From an uncultured Bacteriovoracaceae bacterium (GTDB taxonomy: Bacteria > Bdellovibrionota > Bacteriovoracia > Bacteriovoracales > Bacteriovoracaceae), in the NCBI GenBank assembly GCA_937952395.1, contig CALFYV010000090.1, positions 97,408 through 161,407 on the forward strand: 64,000 nt of DNA. Direction: 5' to 3'. Of the stretch, positions 44,519-63,326 are shown one piece after another (position 1 is the first letter of the stretch; the number at the start of each line of letters is the position of its first letter). Position numbers and translations under genes: made by a program. Below the pieces are notes generated by a model, which searched no databases, had not been told where the DNA came from, and saw only the letters and a program-made list of their open reading frames with translations.

Positions 44519-44578
44519 AAACCGCCATATATAACATTGTCGAGAAACACTTTCGGCAGTGGAAATATATGGCGGTTT
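44519..44578 (+). terminator. Long inverted repeat / terminator-like hairpin after prkA
   Basis: 14-bp perfect arms (AAACCGCCATATAT / ATATATGGCGGTTT), 32-nt loop, followed by GTTTTTGG. Confidence 0.55.
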
Positions 44579-44596
44579 GTTTTTGGTAGTGGTAAA

Positions 44597-46195
44597 ATGA
44601 AAATATGCAGCAAGTGTAAATTAGAACTTCCTTTTGATTCATTTTCAAAGCACAGTCGATCTAAAGATGGTCTTTACTATTGTTGTAAGATTTGTAAGGC
44701 AAAGGAAGATCGAGAATATCGAGCAAGGCATCGAGACAAAATTAAAAAGAAGAAACATTTGTATTATGAGCAAAATAAAGATCATATAAAGTGTAAAACA
44801 GTAAGATATCAGAAACACAATCCTGATAAGGTTAAAGCTTATTCTAAAACAGCAAGAGAAAATCTAAAAATAGAAATATTTAATCATTATTGCAATTGCA
44901 ATATTGAATGTAAAAATTGTGGGCAAAATCAATTGCATTTATTGACAGTTGATCATGTTAACGGTGGTGGTTCCCAACATAAGAGAAGGATCAAAAATCT
45001 TTATTCTTGGATTAAACGAAATAATTTTCCAGAAGGCTTTCAGGTTCTTTGTTGGAATTGTCAATTTAGAAAAAAGAATGAAGAGGCCAAGCCTGAAAAC
45101 CCACAGCCCAATCAAATAAAACAAGCAGAGTATGTTAAAAACATTAAAAAAGAAGTTTTATCACACTATGGAACAACATGCTCCTGCGGAGAATCAGATG
45201 ATGTAGTTTTAACCTTAGATCATATAAATGACAACGGAGCAGAGCATAGAAAAAAATTAGGTCGCAGAGGTTTTAATTTTTATCTTTGGTTGAGAAAAAA
45301 CAACTTTCCAAATGATCCGCCATTGCAAGTATTATGTGCTAATTGCCAATATGATAAGCACAATTTAAAACCTCGTTTATTTAACAGCGAAACACACCTC
45401 CCAGAACACAAAGTACATTTAGAAATTGCTTCTTGGTTAGATTCATTTGGTTTAAAGCTTGAAGATAAAACAATTGAGTATTGTGACTTTTTTTGGCACA
45501 CACAAGTTCCTGAAAGGTATCATTATAATAAATACAAAGAATATTTAGAAAACAATGTTCAATTGATCACTATTTTTGAAGATGAATGGAATGATAGACG
45601 TTCGCAATGTGAGTCTCATATTCTTTCTTTGTTTGGGATAAAAGAAAGAACCGTCTTTGCTAGAAAGTGTTCAATAGTTGATTTAAACAAAGTTGAATTT
45701 AACAAGTTTTGCGATGCTTATCATATTCAAGGTTCTAATAGACTGGGTTTAATTTTTTATGGACTGGAATTTAAAGGCGAGTTGTTGGGGGTTATGTCGC
45801 TGGGACGGCACCACCGACAGGTTAAAACTTTAGTATTAGATCGTTTGTGTTTTAAACGAGGCGTGCAAATTCCAGGTGGCGCAAGCAAGCTTTTTAGCAG
45901 ATGTATAGAATGGGCAAAAATAAATAATTATTCTGATATAATTAGCTTTTCTGATAATAGGTGGAGTTTAGGAGGGGTTTATAAAGCTTTAAATTTTCAA
46001 TTAGACAAAGAACTCCCACCAGACTATAGCTATGTAGATTTAAAAAATGGCGGGAAAAGATTATCCAAACAATCTCAGAAAAAGAAAAACACAAATTGTC
46101 CTTCTGGAATGACCGAAAAGGAATGGGCTTTAGAGCGAGGTTTGGTCCGAATTTGGGATTGTGGTAAAAAGAGATGGGTGTATAATATTCATTGA
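44597..46195 (+). CDS. Double-HNH homing-endonuclease-like protein
   Basis: Two HNH modules (TVDHVNGGGSQH...VLCWNCQ and TLDHINDNGAEH...VLCANCQ) after Cys-rich N-terminal repeats. The C-terminal ARKC...YHIQG...GGASKLF domain resembles those fused to freestanding phage endonucleases. Confidence 0.65.
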   Translation: MKICSKCKLELPFDSFSKHSRSKDGLYYCCKICKAKEDREYRARHRDKIKKKKHLYYEQNKDHIKCKTVRYQKHNPDKVKAYSKTARENLKIEIFNHYCNCNIECKNCGQNQLHLLTVDHVNGGGSQHKRRIKNLYSWIKRNNFPEGFQVLCWNCQFRKKNEEAKPENPQPNQIKQAEYVKNIKKEVLSHYGTTCSCGESDDVVLTLDHINDNGAEHRKKLGRRGFNFYLWLRKNNFPNDPPLQVLCANCQYDKHNLKPRLFNSETHLPEHKVHLEIASWLDSFGLKLEDKTIEYCDFFWHTQVPERYHYNKYKEYLENNVQLITIFEDEWNDRRSQCESHILSLFGIKERTVFARKCSIVDLNKVEFNKFCDAYHIQGSNRLGLIFYGLEFKGELLGVMSLGRHHRQVKTLVLDRLCFKRGVQIPGGASKLFSRCIEWAKINNYSDIISFSDNRWSLGGVYKALNFQLDKELPPDYSYVDLKNGGKRLSKQSQKKKNTNCPSGMTEKEWALERGLVRIWDCGKKRWVYNIH

Positions 46196-49812: not shown

Positions 49813-50505
49813 ATGCCCACAAAGAAAAAGACGGAGTTAGATCAATTAATAAATGATATTCATTGTCACCATATAAATTATCACACCCGAGATATTTATC
49901 TTCATAGTTCTGGCTATGAGGATGGAGATTCTGAGAGGGGTGTGGAATTTAAAATGGCGACAACTTTTGTAAAGAATTTACATATTTTATTAAACCAAAA
50001 TGCAACTCTGCCCATTCTGGTGCATATGCATAGCATTGGTGGTGTTTGGAATGATGGAATGGCGATGTTCAATGCTATTCGATATTCTACGGCACCAATA
50101 ACTATTTTAGCTTATGCACAAGCCAGTTCTATGACAGGCATTTTGCTGCAAGCCGCCGACAGGCGAATTGTTACTCCTGACTGTGAATTTATGTTACATC
50201 ACGGTTCAGTGTCATTGGAGGACAATTCAATAGCTGTTAGATCGGCAGTGGAAACTAATGAAAGATATTGCCGTCGAATGTTAGAAATATTTGCAAGACG
50301 AGCAAAAAATGCTCAATTCTTTAAGGAAAGAAAATATAGTGAAAGTAAAATTAAAAGCTATATCGACCGAAAAATTAAAGACAAAAGTGACTGGTATTTA
50401 GATGCTGAGGAGGCATTGTACTATGGTTTTGTTGATGAAATACTTGACAAACAAATAGATTTCGATCAGTTGCGAACTGTAACTAAATATAAAGGTAAAA
50501 TATGA
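49813..50505 (+). CDS. ClpP-family serine protease
   Basis: AQASSMTG (Ser) and MLHHGS (His) align with ClpP QAASMG / MIHQP. Confidence 0.72.
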   Translation: MPTKKKTELDQLINDIHCHHINYHTRDIYLHSSGYEDGDSERGVEFKMATTFVKNLHILLNQNATLPILVHMHSIGGVWNDGMAMFNAIRYSTAPITILAYAQASSMTGILLQAADRRIVTPDCEFMLHHGSVSLEDNSIAVRSAVETNERYCRRMLEIFARRAKNAQFFKERKYSESKIKSYIDRKIKDKSDWYLDAEEALYYGFVDEILDKQIDFDQLRTVTKYKGKI

Positions 50506-51454: not shown

Positions 51455-52885
51455 ATGGTTGACATTATTTCAAAAAATGGAGGTAAAAAGGTGGAGATTG
51501 TCGGTTTCGAACATCTCCACCTTTAGCTACACACAGATTTTAGTTTACTAGATGGCTATGCCATGGTGGAGGAACATGCTAAAAGAGCAACTGAAATTAA
51601 TCAAAGATTTCTGTGTGTAACTGATCATGGTGCTATGGGCGCCATACCTCGTCAAATTCGTGCTTGTGAAGAAAATAAAATAAGCCCTATTTTCGGCTGC
51701 GAGCTATACATAAATCCCATACAACCCGAATTCAACACTGAAACCGAGCGACTTCAATTCATTAAAAATATCGATCCTGATATTAAAGCTCAGTTTCGTA
51801 AATCATATCATCTTTTAGCTATAGCTTATAATAATACTGGCTATAGCAATCTTGTTAAGCTTTCTTCATGGGGTTGGACCAAGGGCTTTTATTATCGTCC
51901 TCGGGTTAATCATGAGCAGTTGATGAAATATAAAGAAGGAATTGTTTTTTCATCATGTTGTTATAACGGAGAAATTGGACAAGCTTTTGATAAAGGTGGC
52001 GAAGAAGCTGGCGAGGCGATGTTGGTGAAATATATGAAAATGTTTCACCCACATTTTTATCTTGAGTTTATATTGTTGGATTTTGATAAACAAAAGCCTT
52101 ATAACGCATTTATCATGAAAATGCATGATAAATATGGAATCCCTCTCATCATTAGTCAGGACTGCCATTATACTTATAAAGATGATAGTCACATGCAGAG
52201 TTTGATGTTAATGGTTCAAACTGGCAAGACCATCCAAGATATTCAAAAAGCAAAAGAAGCAGATGAAACCGCCGACTTTTTTGAATTACAGGATAAAAAT
52301 CTTTGGATGAAGTCTGAAGAAGAAATAGATGAAAAGTGGGAATCTGATTATCAACATATTGTTGATTATGAGTTGTTAAAAGAAGCTAAAAGAAATACTG
52401 TTAGAATTTGTGAGTTAGCTCAAGGTGTTGAATTAGACAGATCAATGAAATTGCCTCGTTTTGACGATGCCAACGATAAATTAAAAGAATATACTATGCA
52501 AGGCTTCGCTCAGCGTGGATTGCCAAAAAATAAAGAGTATCATAATCGGATTTTGGAAGAATTATCACTGATTATTCAAAAAGACTTCTCGTCTTATTTC
52601 CTCATACAGAAAATGATGACAGATGAGGCTAGACGAAAGTGTCCAGAATTGTTAGGATGGGGGGACGGGTCTGAAGCTTGCGGTCCAGGTCGAGGTAGTG
52701 TTGGCGGAAGTTTGGTTGCTTATTGTTTAGGCATTACTGATGTTGATCCTATAAAACACGATTTGTTGTTTTCTAGATTTTTAAGTCCAGCCCGTGGCGG
52801 TAAATCAGTTAAGTTAAAGTTTGCCTCTGACCCTATTTCTCAAATAGAACAAGTTGTAAACGCAACAGAGGAATGTCCTTTTTAA
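51455..52885 (+). CDS. dnaE: DnaE (Pol III alpha) N-terminal piece: PHP domain and pre-catalytic palm, with an in-frame TAG at 51524-51526
   Basis: The track ORF starts at 51563, but the same frame upstream reads MVDIISKNGGKKVEIVGFEHLHL-TAG-LHTDFSLLDGYA, which is the first PHP motif. Downstream come GPGRGSVGGSLVAYCLGITDVDP and LLFSRFLSPARGG. The ORF ends about 30 aa later, before the PDxDxDF catalytic motif. Confidence 0.7.
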
Positions 52886-54590: not shown

Positions 54591-54761
54591 TTATTTCATA
54601 AGTAGAGCTAGCACAATATAAACTACTAAGCCTGGAACAAAGCCAGTACTTAATGTGACTATGGCATATAACACTCGTATTAAAAGCGAATCAACTCCTA
54701 GTGTGTCAGCGATTCCCGAACATACACCAAGAAGCACTTTATCTTCTGTATTTTTCTTCAT
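54591..54761 (-). CDS. PspC-domain membrane protein
   Basis: Internal start MKKNTEDKVLLGVCSGIADTLGVDSLLIRVLYAIV matches the PspC domain. AAGGA upstream. Confidence 0.6.
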   Translation of the reverse strand: MKKNTEDKVLLGVCSGIADTLGVDSLLIRVLYAIVTLSTGFVPGLVVYIVLALLMK

Positions 54762-54873
54762 TGTAAATCCTTTTGTTATGGCATTTCGCCACAAATTTTG
54801 AAGGCTAGTATATTTAGGGGTAAGCCTCCAAAATTTATTGAGTAGGATTCTACATAATTTTGGCGAATGCGAC

Positions 54874-54901
54874 TTTACAAATCGCCTTTTGTGTGTATAA
54901 T
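54874..54901 (+). promoter_or_regulatory. Sigma70-like promoter upstream of the tmRNA
   Basis: TTTACA, 16-nt spacer, TATAAT. Lies about 150 nt upstream of the mature tmRNA 5' end. Confidence 0.5.
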
Positions 54902-55054
54902 GAAAGAGCACGACGGGGCTATTATCCTGCCCCAGAGCGCCCTATTCTTTTTAAGAAGGTGTCGCCTGGATTGTCGGGATTATTTGGGCTGCCATCGTGT
55001 CTCTCGGTATGGTTTAGACTGATGGACCCAGCCGAGTTGAAAAATCAGTCTCAC

Positions 55055-55403
55055 GGGGTCGTTAGGTTTCGATTCGCAATGAGGTTGAATGTGTGGCATG
55101 CAGTGGTTGATCGAACGGCCACTTTAAAAATCGATCAAGCCTTAACCGGCAATACTTACGCTCAGGCTGCTTAATCAGCCAAGGGTTTTGGGAAGCTAAG
55201 TTAGCTGCGTCCTTAAATCCTAACGAAATGCTAACTGGCTTTAACCCTTGCAGATACAGGTTGAAGTGAGATAAAATGATTCTGCTGGCTCTAAATAACT
55301 TTTGCTATTTGCAGTTTTTAGAGTAAGATTTAGCAAAAAGATAAGCATGTAGAGGCCGCTCGACTAGTTGTAGAAGATGGGGGTTCGATTCCCCCCGACT
55401 CCA
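55055..55403 (+). ncRNA. ssrA: tmRNA (one-piece), CCA not encoded
   Basis: - The 5' GGGGTCG pairs with the 3' CGACTCC, including the G3:U wobble, and is followed by discriminator A.
- T-arm is GGGGG-TTCGATT-CCCCC.
- The conserved TAAGCATGTAG block is present.
- The 5' GGTTTCGATTCGC resembles E. coli GGAUUCGACGGG.
- The tag frame ends ...GGC AAT ACT TAC GCT CAG GCT GCT TAA (GNTYAQAA) at 55174. Confidence 0.88.
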
Positions 55404-55406
55404 CTT

Positions 55407-55459
55407 AACTCATTTACTTCCGTAAATGAGTTCCGTCACCGGCCCTTCGGGGCTCGGTG
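55407..55459 (+). other. Two stable hairpins immediately 3' of the tmRNA
   Basis: AACTCATTTA / TAAATGAGTT (10 bp) and CACCGGCCC-TTCG-GGGCT(C)GGTG (UUCG tetraloop). Confidence 0.6.
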
Positions 55460-55510
55460 TCGTTGTTATAGTTTCCTATGGACCTGACCGGCAATCCGGC
55501 CACGCCCAAA

Positions 55511-55547
55511 ATACCCTGTGGCTTAAATGTCATAGGGTATTTTTTTT
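55511..55547 (+). terminator. Rho-independent terminator
   Basis: ATACCCT...AGGGTAT stem followed by T7. Confidence 0.65.
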
Positions 55548-55587
55548 GACAATTGATTTATTTCAAAAATTGGGTATAATCATTGAT

Positions 55588-56418
55588 ATGAGTAGAGATA
55601 TTTTTAGGTCATATTATCGAGATGTAATTAAACCGCTTGAATCAAGCAATCCTGAAATCATTGGCTATACAGGCAAACACCCTATACTTTATAAAAAAAT
55701 AGGGAATGGTCCTCATCATGTTTTGATTTCAGGAGGCGTACACGGCGAAGAAATTGCAGGATGTGCTGCTGCGGTTGATATAATTGAAAATTTATTCACG
55801 GTTCCAGGGGGCCATTTTACTATTCATGTATATCCATGTATGAATCCGTACGGATATGAATATAATATACGTGAGAATGCTGAAGGTATTGATTTGAATC
55901 GAGGGTTCAAGGAAACACTTAAAGGCCGTGAAGTTGAAATTTTTGCTGAACATGTTAAAAAATTAAATTACAAATATATTTTTACCATGGATTTTCATGA
56001 AGGTTCTCCCAATACTATATGGAAAGTATTAGATAACAATAAAAAAATTAAATGTTCTTATTCTTTAGAAGACAATCCTCATGGTGCGTGGCTTTATGAA
56101 TCTTGTAAGGTTTTGTCTCATCGCATGGGCGATAAAATGTTGCAAGCATTGCGAAACGAAGGTCTAGAAGTAACTTCTAAAGATATTGTTTATGATGATA
56201 TTTGTGATAATGGTTGGATCAAATATCCCGAAGCAATGAAAAGTGAAGAATATGCTGAGGGGAATTCTTTTGATGCATGGCTTTGGGCTCATTATACTTC
56301 TCAAGCGTTTACATCCGAAACGGATATGTCTTGGCCGCTCGAAGATAGAATTAAAGCACATCATTTGATGCTTATGGCTGCGCTCGAAGCCACAAGAACA
56401 AGGTTGGATAATGTCTAA
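55588..56418 (+). CDS. Zinc carboxypeptidase-like (M14 / AstE-AspA family) protein
   Basis: GGVHGEEIAG (HxxE zinc motif). Start moved to 55588 because the track's upstream 54 codons read through the hairpins. TTGATT, 16-nt spacer, TATAAT lies at 55553-55580, just upstream (possibly leaderless). Confidence 0.6.
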   Translation: MSRDIFRSYYRDVIKPLESSNPEIIGYTGKHPILYKKIGNGPHHVLISGGVHGEEIAGCAAAVDIIENLFTVPGGHFTIHVYPCMNPYGYEYNIRENAEGIDLNRGFKETLKGREVEIFAEHVKKLNYKYIFTMDFHEGSPNTIWKVLDNNKKIKCSYSLEDNPHGAWLYESCKVLSHRMGDKMLQALRNEGLEVTSKDIVYDDICDNGWIKYPEAMKSEEYAEGNSFDAWLWAHYTSQAFTSETDMSWPLEDRIKAHHLMLMAALEATRTRLDNV

Positions 56419-62843: not shown

Positions 62844-63326
62844 ATGCTTAAACGAATTATTTCTGGCGCTCAAAGCGGGGCAGGTTTAGCGGGATTAAAA
62901 GTTGCTAAAGATTTCGGTTTAGAGACGGGCGGTTCAATTCCTAAGGGGTGGATTACTACTGACGGACCACATCCAGAATACGCTGAATTATATAATATTG
63001 TTGAACACTATAGTCCAAAATATCCTCCACGAACGTTCAAAAATGTTCGTGATTCTGATGGCACTATTCGGCTGGCTTTTAATTTCAACTCTCCAGGTGA
63101 GATATGTACTTTGAAGGCTTTGGATCAATATTTGAAGCCTTATATGGATGTTGATTTGAATAACCCCGGTCCTGCCCAGGAAGTTGCAGATTGGATTGTT
63201 GACAACAGTATAGAAACACTCAATATTGCAGGTAATTCAGAAAAAACCTATAAAGGGACGGAAGAAGCTGTTTATAATTATTTAAAAGAGGTTTTATCTT
63301 TATTGGATTTTAAAGAAAATGATTGA
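62844..63326 (+). CDS. YpsA / SLOG-superfamily (molybdenum-carrier-like) protein
   Basis: IISGAQSGAGLAGLKVAKDFGLETGGSIPKGW matches the IxSGGQTGxD...GGWxPKG pattern, with the Asp replaced. Confidence 0.55.
   Translation: MLKRIISGAQSGAGLAGLKVAKDFGLETGGSIPKGWITTDGPHPEYAELYNIVEHYSPKYPPRTFKNVRDSDGTIRLAFNFNSPGEICTLKALDQYLKPYMDVDLNNPGPAQEVADWIVDNSIETLNIAGNSEKTYKGTEEAVYNYLKEVLSLLDFKEND

Follow-up and report, generated by a model that had tools for sequence, protein, structure and literature searches.

A complete tmRNA gene on a 546-kb huge phage genome that also encodes SmpB

The window analysed here is a 64-kb stretch of the metagenomic contig C90 (C90:97408-161407). It contains one tmRNA gene, flanked by a PspC-domain gene and an M14-like peptidase/gyrase operon (Table 1). 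ARAGORN called a tmRNA at 55055-55404 on the plus strand, with the tag GNTYAQAA and a stop, as its sole tmRNA in the 64-kb window. The Rfam tmRNA family RF00023 matched 55055-55406 along the whole model, 1-374 (111.5 bits against a gathering score of 47 bits; E 9.6e-43), and no other Rfam family reached its threshold within the 64 kb. All the other tmRNAs compared score higher, the bacterial relatives at 122-203 bits; the RNA is therefore divergent. The discriminator A at 55403 is followed by CUU where an encoded end would read CCA, so that CCA is not encoded, as had been read from the letters.

A permuted two-piece tmRNA (RF01849-RF01851, RF04321) was considered and rejected because the order of the parts is standard, ARAGORN flags no permutation and RF00023 is the sole Rfam match. 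An ssrA-derived attachment-site fragment was likewise rejected, the gene being full length and no integrase being present among its neighbours. A listed open reading frame at 54860-55174 is the tag frame prolonged upstream.

Table 1 Features of the tmRNA locus and partner genes (window positions unless prefixed C90)
Feature	Position	Strand	Basis and remarks
Divergent ClpP-family peptidase	49813..50505	+	Pfam CLP_protease 79.6 bits; 4.6 kb upstream of tmRNA
Promoter-like site (TTTACA, 16 nt, TATAAT)	54874..54901	+	11/12 consensus matches; ~150 nt upstream of mature 5' end
Mature one-piece tmRNA, G1 to discriminator A	55055..55403	+	349 nt; ARAGORN, RF00023 and sequence
Acceptor stem P1, GGGGUCG/CGACUCC	55055-55061 with 55396-55402	+	7 bp, including G3:U alanine identity pair
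Helix 2 (2a-2d)	5' strands 55073-55101, pairing with 55345-55375	+	Drawn pairs; relatives
Pseudoknot 1	55102..55138 (55102-55106 with 55119-55123; 55107-55114 with 55131-55138)	+
Tag frame, GGC AAU ACU UAC GCU CAG GCU GCU UAA (GNTYAQAA and stop)	55148..55174	+	Resume codon 55148-55150
Helix 5, UAA stop in loop	55165..55180	+	Drawn pairs
Pseudoknot 2	55182..55235 (55182-55188 with 55215-55221; 55200-55205 with 55230-55235)	+
Pseudoknot 3	55243..55285 (55243-55246 with 55259-55262; 55250-55254 with 55281-55285)	+	Drawable for C90 sequence
Pseudoknot 4	55288..55338 (55288-55295 with 55317-55324; 55300-55307 with 55331-55338)	+
UAAGCAUGUAG	55342-55352	+	Sequence
T arm GGGGG, loop UUCGAUU, CCCCC	55379..55395	+	100% paired in 7 sequences; two pairs covary
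Hairpin in 3' trailer, 11 bp	55407..55432	+	4 nt past discriminator; -14.2 kcal/mol, z -4.55 vs shuffles
Intrinsic-terminator-like hairpin, 15 bp, then U run	55508..55549	+	-23.7 kcal/mol, z -5.34; 0/200 shuffles as stable
SmpB gene	C90:78488-78928	-	201 bits vs NCBIfam equivalog cut-off 130; outside window

Architecture of the tmRNA and its transcription unit

The structure was drawn with standard pairs, counting the tmRNA from window base 55055. The sequence-only reading had described a complete tmRNA and named ARAGORN and the Rfam tmRNA models as checks; both were run and both call a full-length one-piece tmRNA. The acceptor stem with its G3:U pair, the T arm, the UAAGCAUGUAG element and the UAA stop at 55172-55174 are each present in the sequence. 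All the canonical helices can be drawn, as can four pseudoknots in the region whose foldability had been made a point of doubt, and compensatory changes among relatives add to the case for a complete gene.

Across seven related tmRNAs, 70.1% of cells are paired, compared with 63.1% in column shuffles (none of 500 as high), and the value drops to 39-50% when the partners are slid. Compensatory changes occur at 38 of the 87 pairs. Pairing is complete (100%) in the acceptor stem, the T arm and helix 2d; within the acceptor stem, G3:U never varies and positions 5 and 6 covary. Helices 2a and 2d keep their pairing in each of the seven sequences, with compensatory changes, 2a having no tally of its own in the pair count. 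In pseudoknot 1, compensatory changes preserve both stems in the closest relatives (L235, G021 and L222); the second stem of pseudoknot 2 is paired at 6/6 positions in C90 and in the same three relatives, with two compensatory positions; and the first pair of helix 5 changes from G-C to C-G in L235. Both stems of pseudoknot 4 are paired at 8/8 positions in C90 and partly retained in L235 and L211. For pseudoknots 3 and 4, comparative support is poor outside the C90 sequence and its closest relative; part of the reason is the alignment, which takes no account of structure and is poor in the region of pseudoknot 3.

The mRNA-like domain is complete, with a resume codon after pseudoknot 1, a short frame ending in AA and a stop in the loop of helix 5. 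Its start had been left ambiguous between GCC at 55139 and GGC at 55148. ARAGORN chooses GGC, and Rfam aligns GGC with the consensus GCA. This codon lies 9 nt past the end of pseudoknot 1 (55138), behind a single-stranded GCCUUAACC, and the block formed by GCCUUAACC and GGC is unchanged in the seven related tmRNAs. With GGC as +1, U falls at -5 and A at -4, as do U85 and A86 in E. coli tmRNA. The rejected GCC directly abuts pseudoknot 1. The tool calls, the invariant block and the spacing thus resolve the choice in favour of GGC at 55148 as the predicted resume codon.

Judged by consensus matches to a promoter and a terminator, the tmRNA gene looks like a free-standing transcription unit. The upstream promoter-like site is the presumed start of the tmRNA precursor, on the strength of its consensus match, and the 15-bp hairpin with its U run is the presumed end of the unit. 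The shorter hairpin in the 3' trailer is probably an element for processing or stabilising the precursor. Because the tmRNA appears to be its own unit with a terminator-like hairpin, the start given for the listed open reading frame at 55426-56418 lies too far upstream; for the M14-like peptidase gene, the most likely start codon is the ATG at 55589, which follows a second promoter-like site.

The phage genome and its partner genes

The assembly consists of 493 contigs and is 78% complete. With 546,147 bp, C90 is an outlier in it, the next contig measuring 44 kb and the median 3.8 kb. It carries 55 tRNA genes and, at 299-312 kb, a set of phage head genes, namely those for a T4-type major head protein (phrog_138, 2e-81), for the portal (2e-62) and for the large terminase (1e-37, with Pfam Terminase_6N/6C matching as well). 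The major head protein shares 77% identity with its counterpart in LR756511.1, a 595,163-bp GenBank chromosome record labelled 'uncultured phage', which is presumably a genome of the 2020 set of Al-Shayeb et al. The rest of the bin belongs to a Bacteriovoracaceae-like bacterium. No word of at least 18 nt is shared between C90 and the other 492 contigs, and consequently no spacer matches link C90 to the rest of the bin. The head protein, portal and terminase genes, the outlying size of the contig and the head-protein identity to a published 595-kb phage support the earlier assignment of the tmRNA to a phage, here a 546-kb huge phage with a T4-like head. Genome-wide TAG recoding was considered as a reason for the tmRNA and rejected, as TAG readthrough raises the open reading frame cover no more than TGA readthrough does; 66 long open reading frames of the phage end in TAG.

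Of the two SmpB genes in the assembly, one belongs to the bacterial contig C26; the other is on C90, at a distance of 73.5 kb from the tmRNA, and their products are 42% identical. Solved SmpB structures can be aligned with the phage SmpB along its whole length, and the match takes in the conserved GKxxHDKR tail. Also on C90, outside the window, is a gene for a canonical ClpX, which scores 563 bits (cut-off 359) and keeps the zinc-binding domain and the GYVG, RKH and IGF loops. The ClpP-like protein of the window aligns to solved ClpP chains over residues 43-213; it scores below the NCBIfam ClpP equivalog cut-offs and also bears a likeness to ClpP-related head maturation proteases. This protein could act together with the phage ClpX in proteolysis.

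A class II nucleotidyltransferase encoded on C90 outside the window has CCA-adding enzymes as its best match and falls below the equivalog cut-off. CCA is encoded in one of the 55 phage tRNAs and missing from the other 54, and a putative CCA-adding enzyme would fit with this and with the unencoded CCA of the tmRNA. A protein resembling release factor 1 (221 residues) lacks the N-terminal domain. RNase R was not found in the whole assembly, and alanyl-tRNA synthetase (AlaRS) was not found on C90. Charging would therefore fall to the host, and this dependence would account for the strictly conserved G3:U.

Related loci, the tag and signals of the host

A blastn search with the C90 tmRNA against 50,697 phage records gave no match, and neither did an exact search of IMG/VR with a degenerate tag-coding pattern; the tmRNA of LR756511.1 was reached only by way of the head protein and Rfam. 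SmpB relatives in IMG/VR were found with an alignment query, a single-protein query having given none. They lie on 159 contigs, with 13 of the 80 listed exceeding 200 kb. SmpB relatives of 60-77% identity occur on metagenome contigs of up to 464 kb, and one metagenome contig with an SmpB relative looks typically phage-like in gene content, most of its genes being small and lacking Pfam matches. Among eight huge SmpB-carrying records searched, three have a standard tmRNA above the cut-off (G021, G026 and G027), two a permuted one (G024 and G028) and three none.

The closest of these records, G021 (436 kb), has a tmRNA of 114.8 bits with the tag GETPAYRMAA. Its tmRNA is syntenic with that of C90, in a neighbourhood with an N-terminal piece of dnaE (66% identical) and an AAA ATPase (64%), and, like C90, G021 encodes SmpB. 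In LR756511.1, the tmRNA (122.2 bits, tag ANPEFAMAA) has SpoVR on one side and the same AAA ATPase and dnaE on the other, and ClpX is 56% identical to that of C90; SmpB was not found in this genome. The phage SmpB is therefore not indispensable, since a sister phage has a tmRNA without it, and within the clade formed by C90, G021 and LR756511.1 the tmRNA is constant and SmpB variable.

A pattern scan of metagenomes returned 120 loci with a handful of tmRNAs among them. One, on contig L235, is the closest tmRNA to that of C90, 74% identical over the full length and with the tag GNTYAIAA. Two high-GC-looking contigs, L262 and L249, have the tags GNT[DE]YALAA. A short tmRNA-like element of two relatives was also sought in the C90 phage, where the best candidate was an 81-nt tRNA-like gene, and was rejected.

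Comparison of the tag with those of candidate hosts, which the sequence-only reading had proposed as a hint at the host lineage, was carried out on 69 bacterial tags, 41 from Bdellovibrionota (the phylum of the bin) and 28 from Planctomycetota. Bdellovibrionota tags start with Gly in 19 of 41 cases and are eight residues long in 11 of 41, typical examples being GNDYALAA, GNNYAMAA and GDNYAMAA; GNTYAQAA matches the first two at six of eight positions each. Planctomycetota tags start with Ala in 26 of 28 cases. Gln at position -3 occurs in none of the 69 sampled tags, in which Leu or Met dominate. The related phage tags carry Ile (in the closest tmRNA, L235) or Met (in the syntenic sister phages) at this position, and Gln at -3 is therefore private to the C90 genome and not a conserved phage feature.

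The phage SmpB falls in a 12-member clade made up entirely of huge-phage and metagenome sequences (SH-like support 92). In this tree of a short protein, for which the bacterial rows were picked as best matches to the phage clade, that clade is sister to Planctomycetota (support 89), apart from the Bdellovibrionota SmpBs. BLAST similarity of the tmRNA to tmRNAs of Bdellovibrionota or Planctomycetota is confined to the universal 3' end. The host clues from the tag and from the SmpB tree appear to conflict: the style of the tag fits Bdellovibrionota, the phage SmpB groups beside Planctomycetota, and the hint is only weakly usable.

Proposed function and comparison with known systems

We consider it probable that the locus is a functional one-piece tmRNA (ssrA) gene of a ~546-kb huge phage with a T4-like head, serving ribosome rescue and tagging during infection. 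In this best-supported reading, ordinary trans-translation would be run with viral parts; what the analysis establishes is the gene with its structure, its conservation and its partner genes, whereas expression, charging and tagging are inferred. Transcription of the gene as a separate unit would begin at the promoter-like site at 54874 and end at the terminator at 55508-55549. The 5' end of the RNA would be trimmed by host RNase P, and its 3' end would be trimmed and then completed with CCA by a CCA-adding enzyme, possibly the phage's own. Host AlaRS would charge it with alanine through the G3:U pair, the phage SmpB would bind the charged RNA, and the complex would enter ribosomes that have reached the 3' end of a broken or stop-less mRNA and stalled there. 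Translation would switch to the tag frame from the GGC at 55148, (A)GNTYAQAA would be added, and termination at UAA would free the ribosome. The tagged fragments would pass to ClpXP-type proteases, towards which the phage contributes a canonical ClpX and, perhaps, a ClpP. The net effect would be a ribosome pool kept available in a long infection while mRNAs degrade, a gain for the phage that we infer from general knowledge of trans-translation alone.

That the gene is instead an ssrA native to the bacterium, with C90 a piece of the chromosome of the Bacteriovoracaceae-like genome, is hardly credible. It is the sole tmRNA above the cut-off in a bin that is 78% complete, and its tag style (eight residues, Gly at the start, xYAxAA) is common in the phylum of the bin; but C90 carries phage head, portal and terminase genes with 55 tRNAs, holds a second SmpB only 42% identical to that of the bin, and has no words of at least 18 nt in common with the other contigs. 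The syntenic locus in IMG/VR and GenBank huge-phage records argues against the bacterial origin and also against a chimeric contig. We regard it as very improbable, too, that the gene is a decaying relic, either a captured host ssrA or the remnant of an attachment site out of use. Fragments of ssrA are often found in temperate phages, as attachment sites; many IMG/VR contigs of ~40 kb end at smpB; and for a tmRNA the Rfam score is low. Against decay stand a full-length gene with every domain present and the tag frame intact, compensatory changes among relatives, an invariant context of the resume codon, a syntenic position kept across phages whose proteins are only 40-77% identical, and the retention of a dedicated SmpB.

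Two further readings accept a working gene and assign it a more special role. Gln at -3 could make the tag a poor substrate for host ClpXP, uncoupling rescue from host proteolysis or directing the products to the phage's own ClpX and ClpP. The absence of this residue from the 69 sampled bacterial tags and the presence of ClpX and a ClpP-like protein in the phage would agree with such a degron, as would the ClpX determinant of E. coli, reported to be the last three residues, LAA (Flynn et al. 2001). The relatives, however, have Ile or Met at -3, which marks Gln as a lineage-specific substitution, and the phage ClpX has standard GYVG, RKH and IGF loops; we find a private degron improbable, and the earlier suggestion that the tag evades or redirects host proteolysis is speculation. 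It is unlikely, if slightly easier to defend, that the main role is counter-defence, with tmRNA and SmpB clearing ribosomes stalled by RNA-cutting abortive-infection systems (mRNA interferases, anticodon nucleases) in concert with the 55 tRNAs and the CCA-adding enzyme. Ribosome-dependent mRNA cleavage yields non-stop complexes, and a near-complete tRNA set, a CCA-adding-type enzyme, tmRNA, SmpB and a release-factor-like protein are found together in this genome; the reading nevertheless overlaps with general ribosome rescue and is inseparable from it by sequence analysis. It is a similarly long shot that tmRNA, SmpB, CCA-adding enzyme, ClpX and the ClpP-like protein form a self-contained 'rescue and destroy' pathway, in which a tag with Gln at position 3 from its end would be favoured by the phage protease or escape that of the host. 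If so, the virus would have private control over the fate of truncated proteins in the infected cell.

Whichever role it plays, the locus is of interest for the co-occurrence of tmRNA, SmpB, ClpX, a ClpP-like protein and a CCA-adding-type enzyme in one genome, and for a clade of 0.44-0.6-Mb phages in which the place of the tmRNA is fixed and the tag and the presence of SmpB vary. It offers a test case for whether phage trans-translation only frees ribosomes or also steers proteolysis and, with no AlaRS found on C90, for how far it still relies on host factors.

The C90 tmRNA shares with the bacterial one-piece tmRNA (RF00023; E. coli tag ANDENYALAA) a tRNA-like domain with G3:U, helix 2 and pseudoknots 1-4, as well as the predicted resume codon, a tag ending in AA, a stop in the loop of helix 5 and a presumable dependence on SmpB. 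It differs in being encoded by a virus, in its unencoded CCA and in a short tag, eight residues long, that opens with a Gly resume codon and has Gln at -3. Permuted tmRNAs have the same function and occur on SmpB-encoding IMG/VR contigs of >290 kb (G024 and G028), whereas the C90 gene is unpermuted. LR756511.1 is, like C90, a huge phage with many tRNAs and a one-piece tmRNA in a PrkA / DUF444 / SpoVR ... AAA / dnaE neighbourhood. The two tmRNA sequences have diverged from each other past easy recognition by BLAST, and the tag of LR756511.1 is ANPEFAMAA as against GNTYAQAA in C90; C90 and G021 have SmpB, and LR756511.1 does not.

Huge phages have been described to carry tmRNAs and SmpB (Al-Shayeb et al. 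2020, Nature 578:425, PMC7162821). Like those huge-phage tmRNAs, the one on C90 sits on a phage genome of >200 kb with hallmark genes. The marine megaphage Mar_Mega_1 has a tmRNA as well (PMC9723777). The cultivated megaphage Bacillus phage G (499 kb) is described in the tmRNA passages of PMC12484599 as having one tmRNA, tRNAs, a suppressor tRNA and its own ClpX and ClpP. Its tmRNA, given there as 308 nt with the tag AKLNITNNELQVA, is unlike that of C90, and those passages on the tmRNA do not mention SmpB, which C90 has; phage G represents a different lineage, absent from the near head-protein matches of C90. Phage-encoded tmRNA together with SmpB has thus already been described, and C90 is a solid further example, which adds a well-anatomised case to the short list of viral tmRNAs.

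Short tmRNA-like elements in relatives of the phage

Two relatives of the phage, the 436-kb IMG/VR huge-phage record IMGVR_UViG_3300017388_000001 (G021) and the 595-kb uncultured phage genome LR756511.1, each carry a second tmRNA-like element of only 137–143 nt that scores above the Rfam tmRNA cut-off. Both short elements possess a 7-bp acceptor stem with the G3:U pair, the D-loop motif GGUUUCGA and a T arm, and in each of them the tRNA-like parts are separated by approximately 90 nt. In the G021 element, this insert contains a tag-like frame, GCG UAC AAC GAA AAC UCG GCG GCA ACC UAG. Neither element was called by ARAGORN. The two may represent a miniature class of tmRNA.

Features of the window, of the phage contig (C90) outside it and of two related genomes
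Feature	Coordinates	Strand	Match
Short tmRNA-like element, G021	325378-325520 (excerpt L117:1501-1643)	-	Rfam tmRNA, 55.2 bits
Short tmRNA-like element, LR756511.1	2250-2386 (excerpt L357:1501-1637)	+	Rfam tmRNA, 50.4 bits
Small PspC-domain protein	window 54591-54911	-	58.7 bits
M14/AstE-like peptidase, listed ORF	window 55426-56418	+	
Divergent ClpP-family protein	window 49813-50505	+	
Canonical ClpX	C90:504128-505381	-	563 bits
81-nt tRNA-like gene	C90:535304-535384 (excerpt L360:1304-1384)	-	Rfam tRNA, 47 bits
Amber suppressor tRNA, anticodon CUA	C90:489560-489634	-	well-formed tRNA
Release-factor-1-like protein, 221 residues	C90:521677-522342	-	187 bits, below cut-off
YpsA-type SLOG domain protein, circularly permuted	window 62844-63326	+	103 bits
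Protein with weak Mom-family match	window 44537-46195	+	25 bits, below cut-off

Clp proteins and genes flanking the tmRNA

Immediately upstream of the putative tmRNA promoter, a gene read in the opposite direction codes for a small protein with a PspC domain, which is of the envelope-stress type and unusual on a phage. On the other side, the listed peptidase ORF runs across the trailer hairpins and predicted terminator of the tmRNA; the true start of the peptidase is probably the ATG at 55589. Because this ATG lies only 9 nt downstream of a promoter-like TATAAT, the peptidase mRNA may be nearly leaderless.

The ClpX encoded by the phage retains the zinc domain and all of the GYVG, RKH and IGF loops, and is also found in G021 (61% identity) and LR756511.1 (56% identity). 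In the ClpP-family protein of the window, Ser, His and Asp apparently occupy the sites of the ClpP triad, as judged by eye from the alignment. Close to the replication genes, the SLOG protein and the protein with the weak Mom-family match hint at roles in the modification of nucleotides or DNA.

Translation-related genes and tmRNA architectures

The tRNA-like gene on the phage contig, missed by ARAGORN, has an acceptor stem with G3:U and an "anticodon" stem of 7 bp that closes a 15-nt loop, UAAGGAGUAAUAUCC, within which lies a Shine-Dalgarno-like AAGGAG. The amber suppressor tRNA could suppress the in-frame TAG in dnaE (window 51455-51565); genome-wide TAG recoding was not found in this phage. 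The release-factor-like protein matches domains 2–4 of release factor 1, without the N-terminal domain; it may act in termination or ribosome rescue as a shortened factor.

Permuted two-piece tmRNAs, of alpha- and beta-proteobacterial types, are present in two other SmpB-encoding huge phage contigs from IMG/VR, G024 (523,836 bp) and G028 (296,594 bp). Thus, tmRNAs of differing architectures have been acquired by huge phages.
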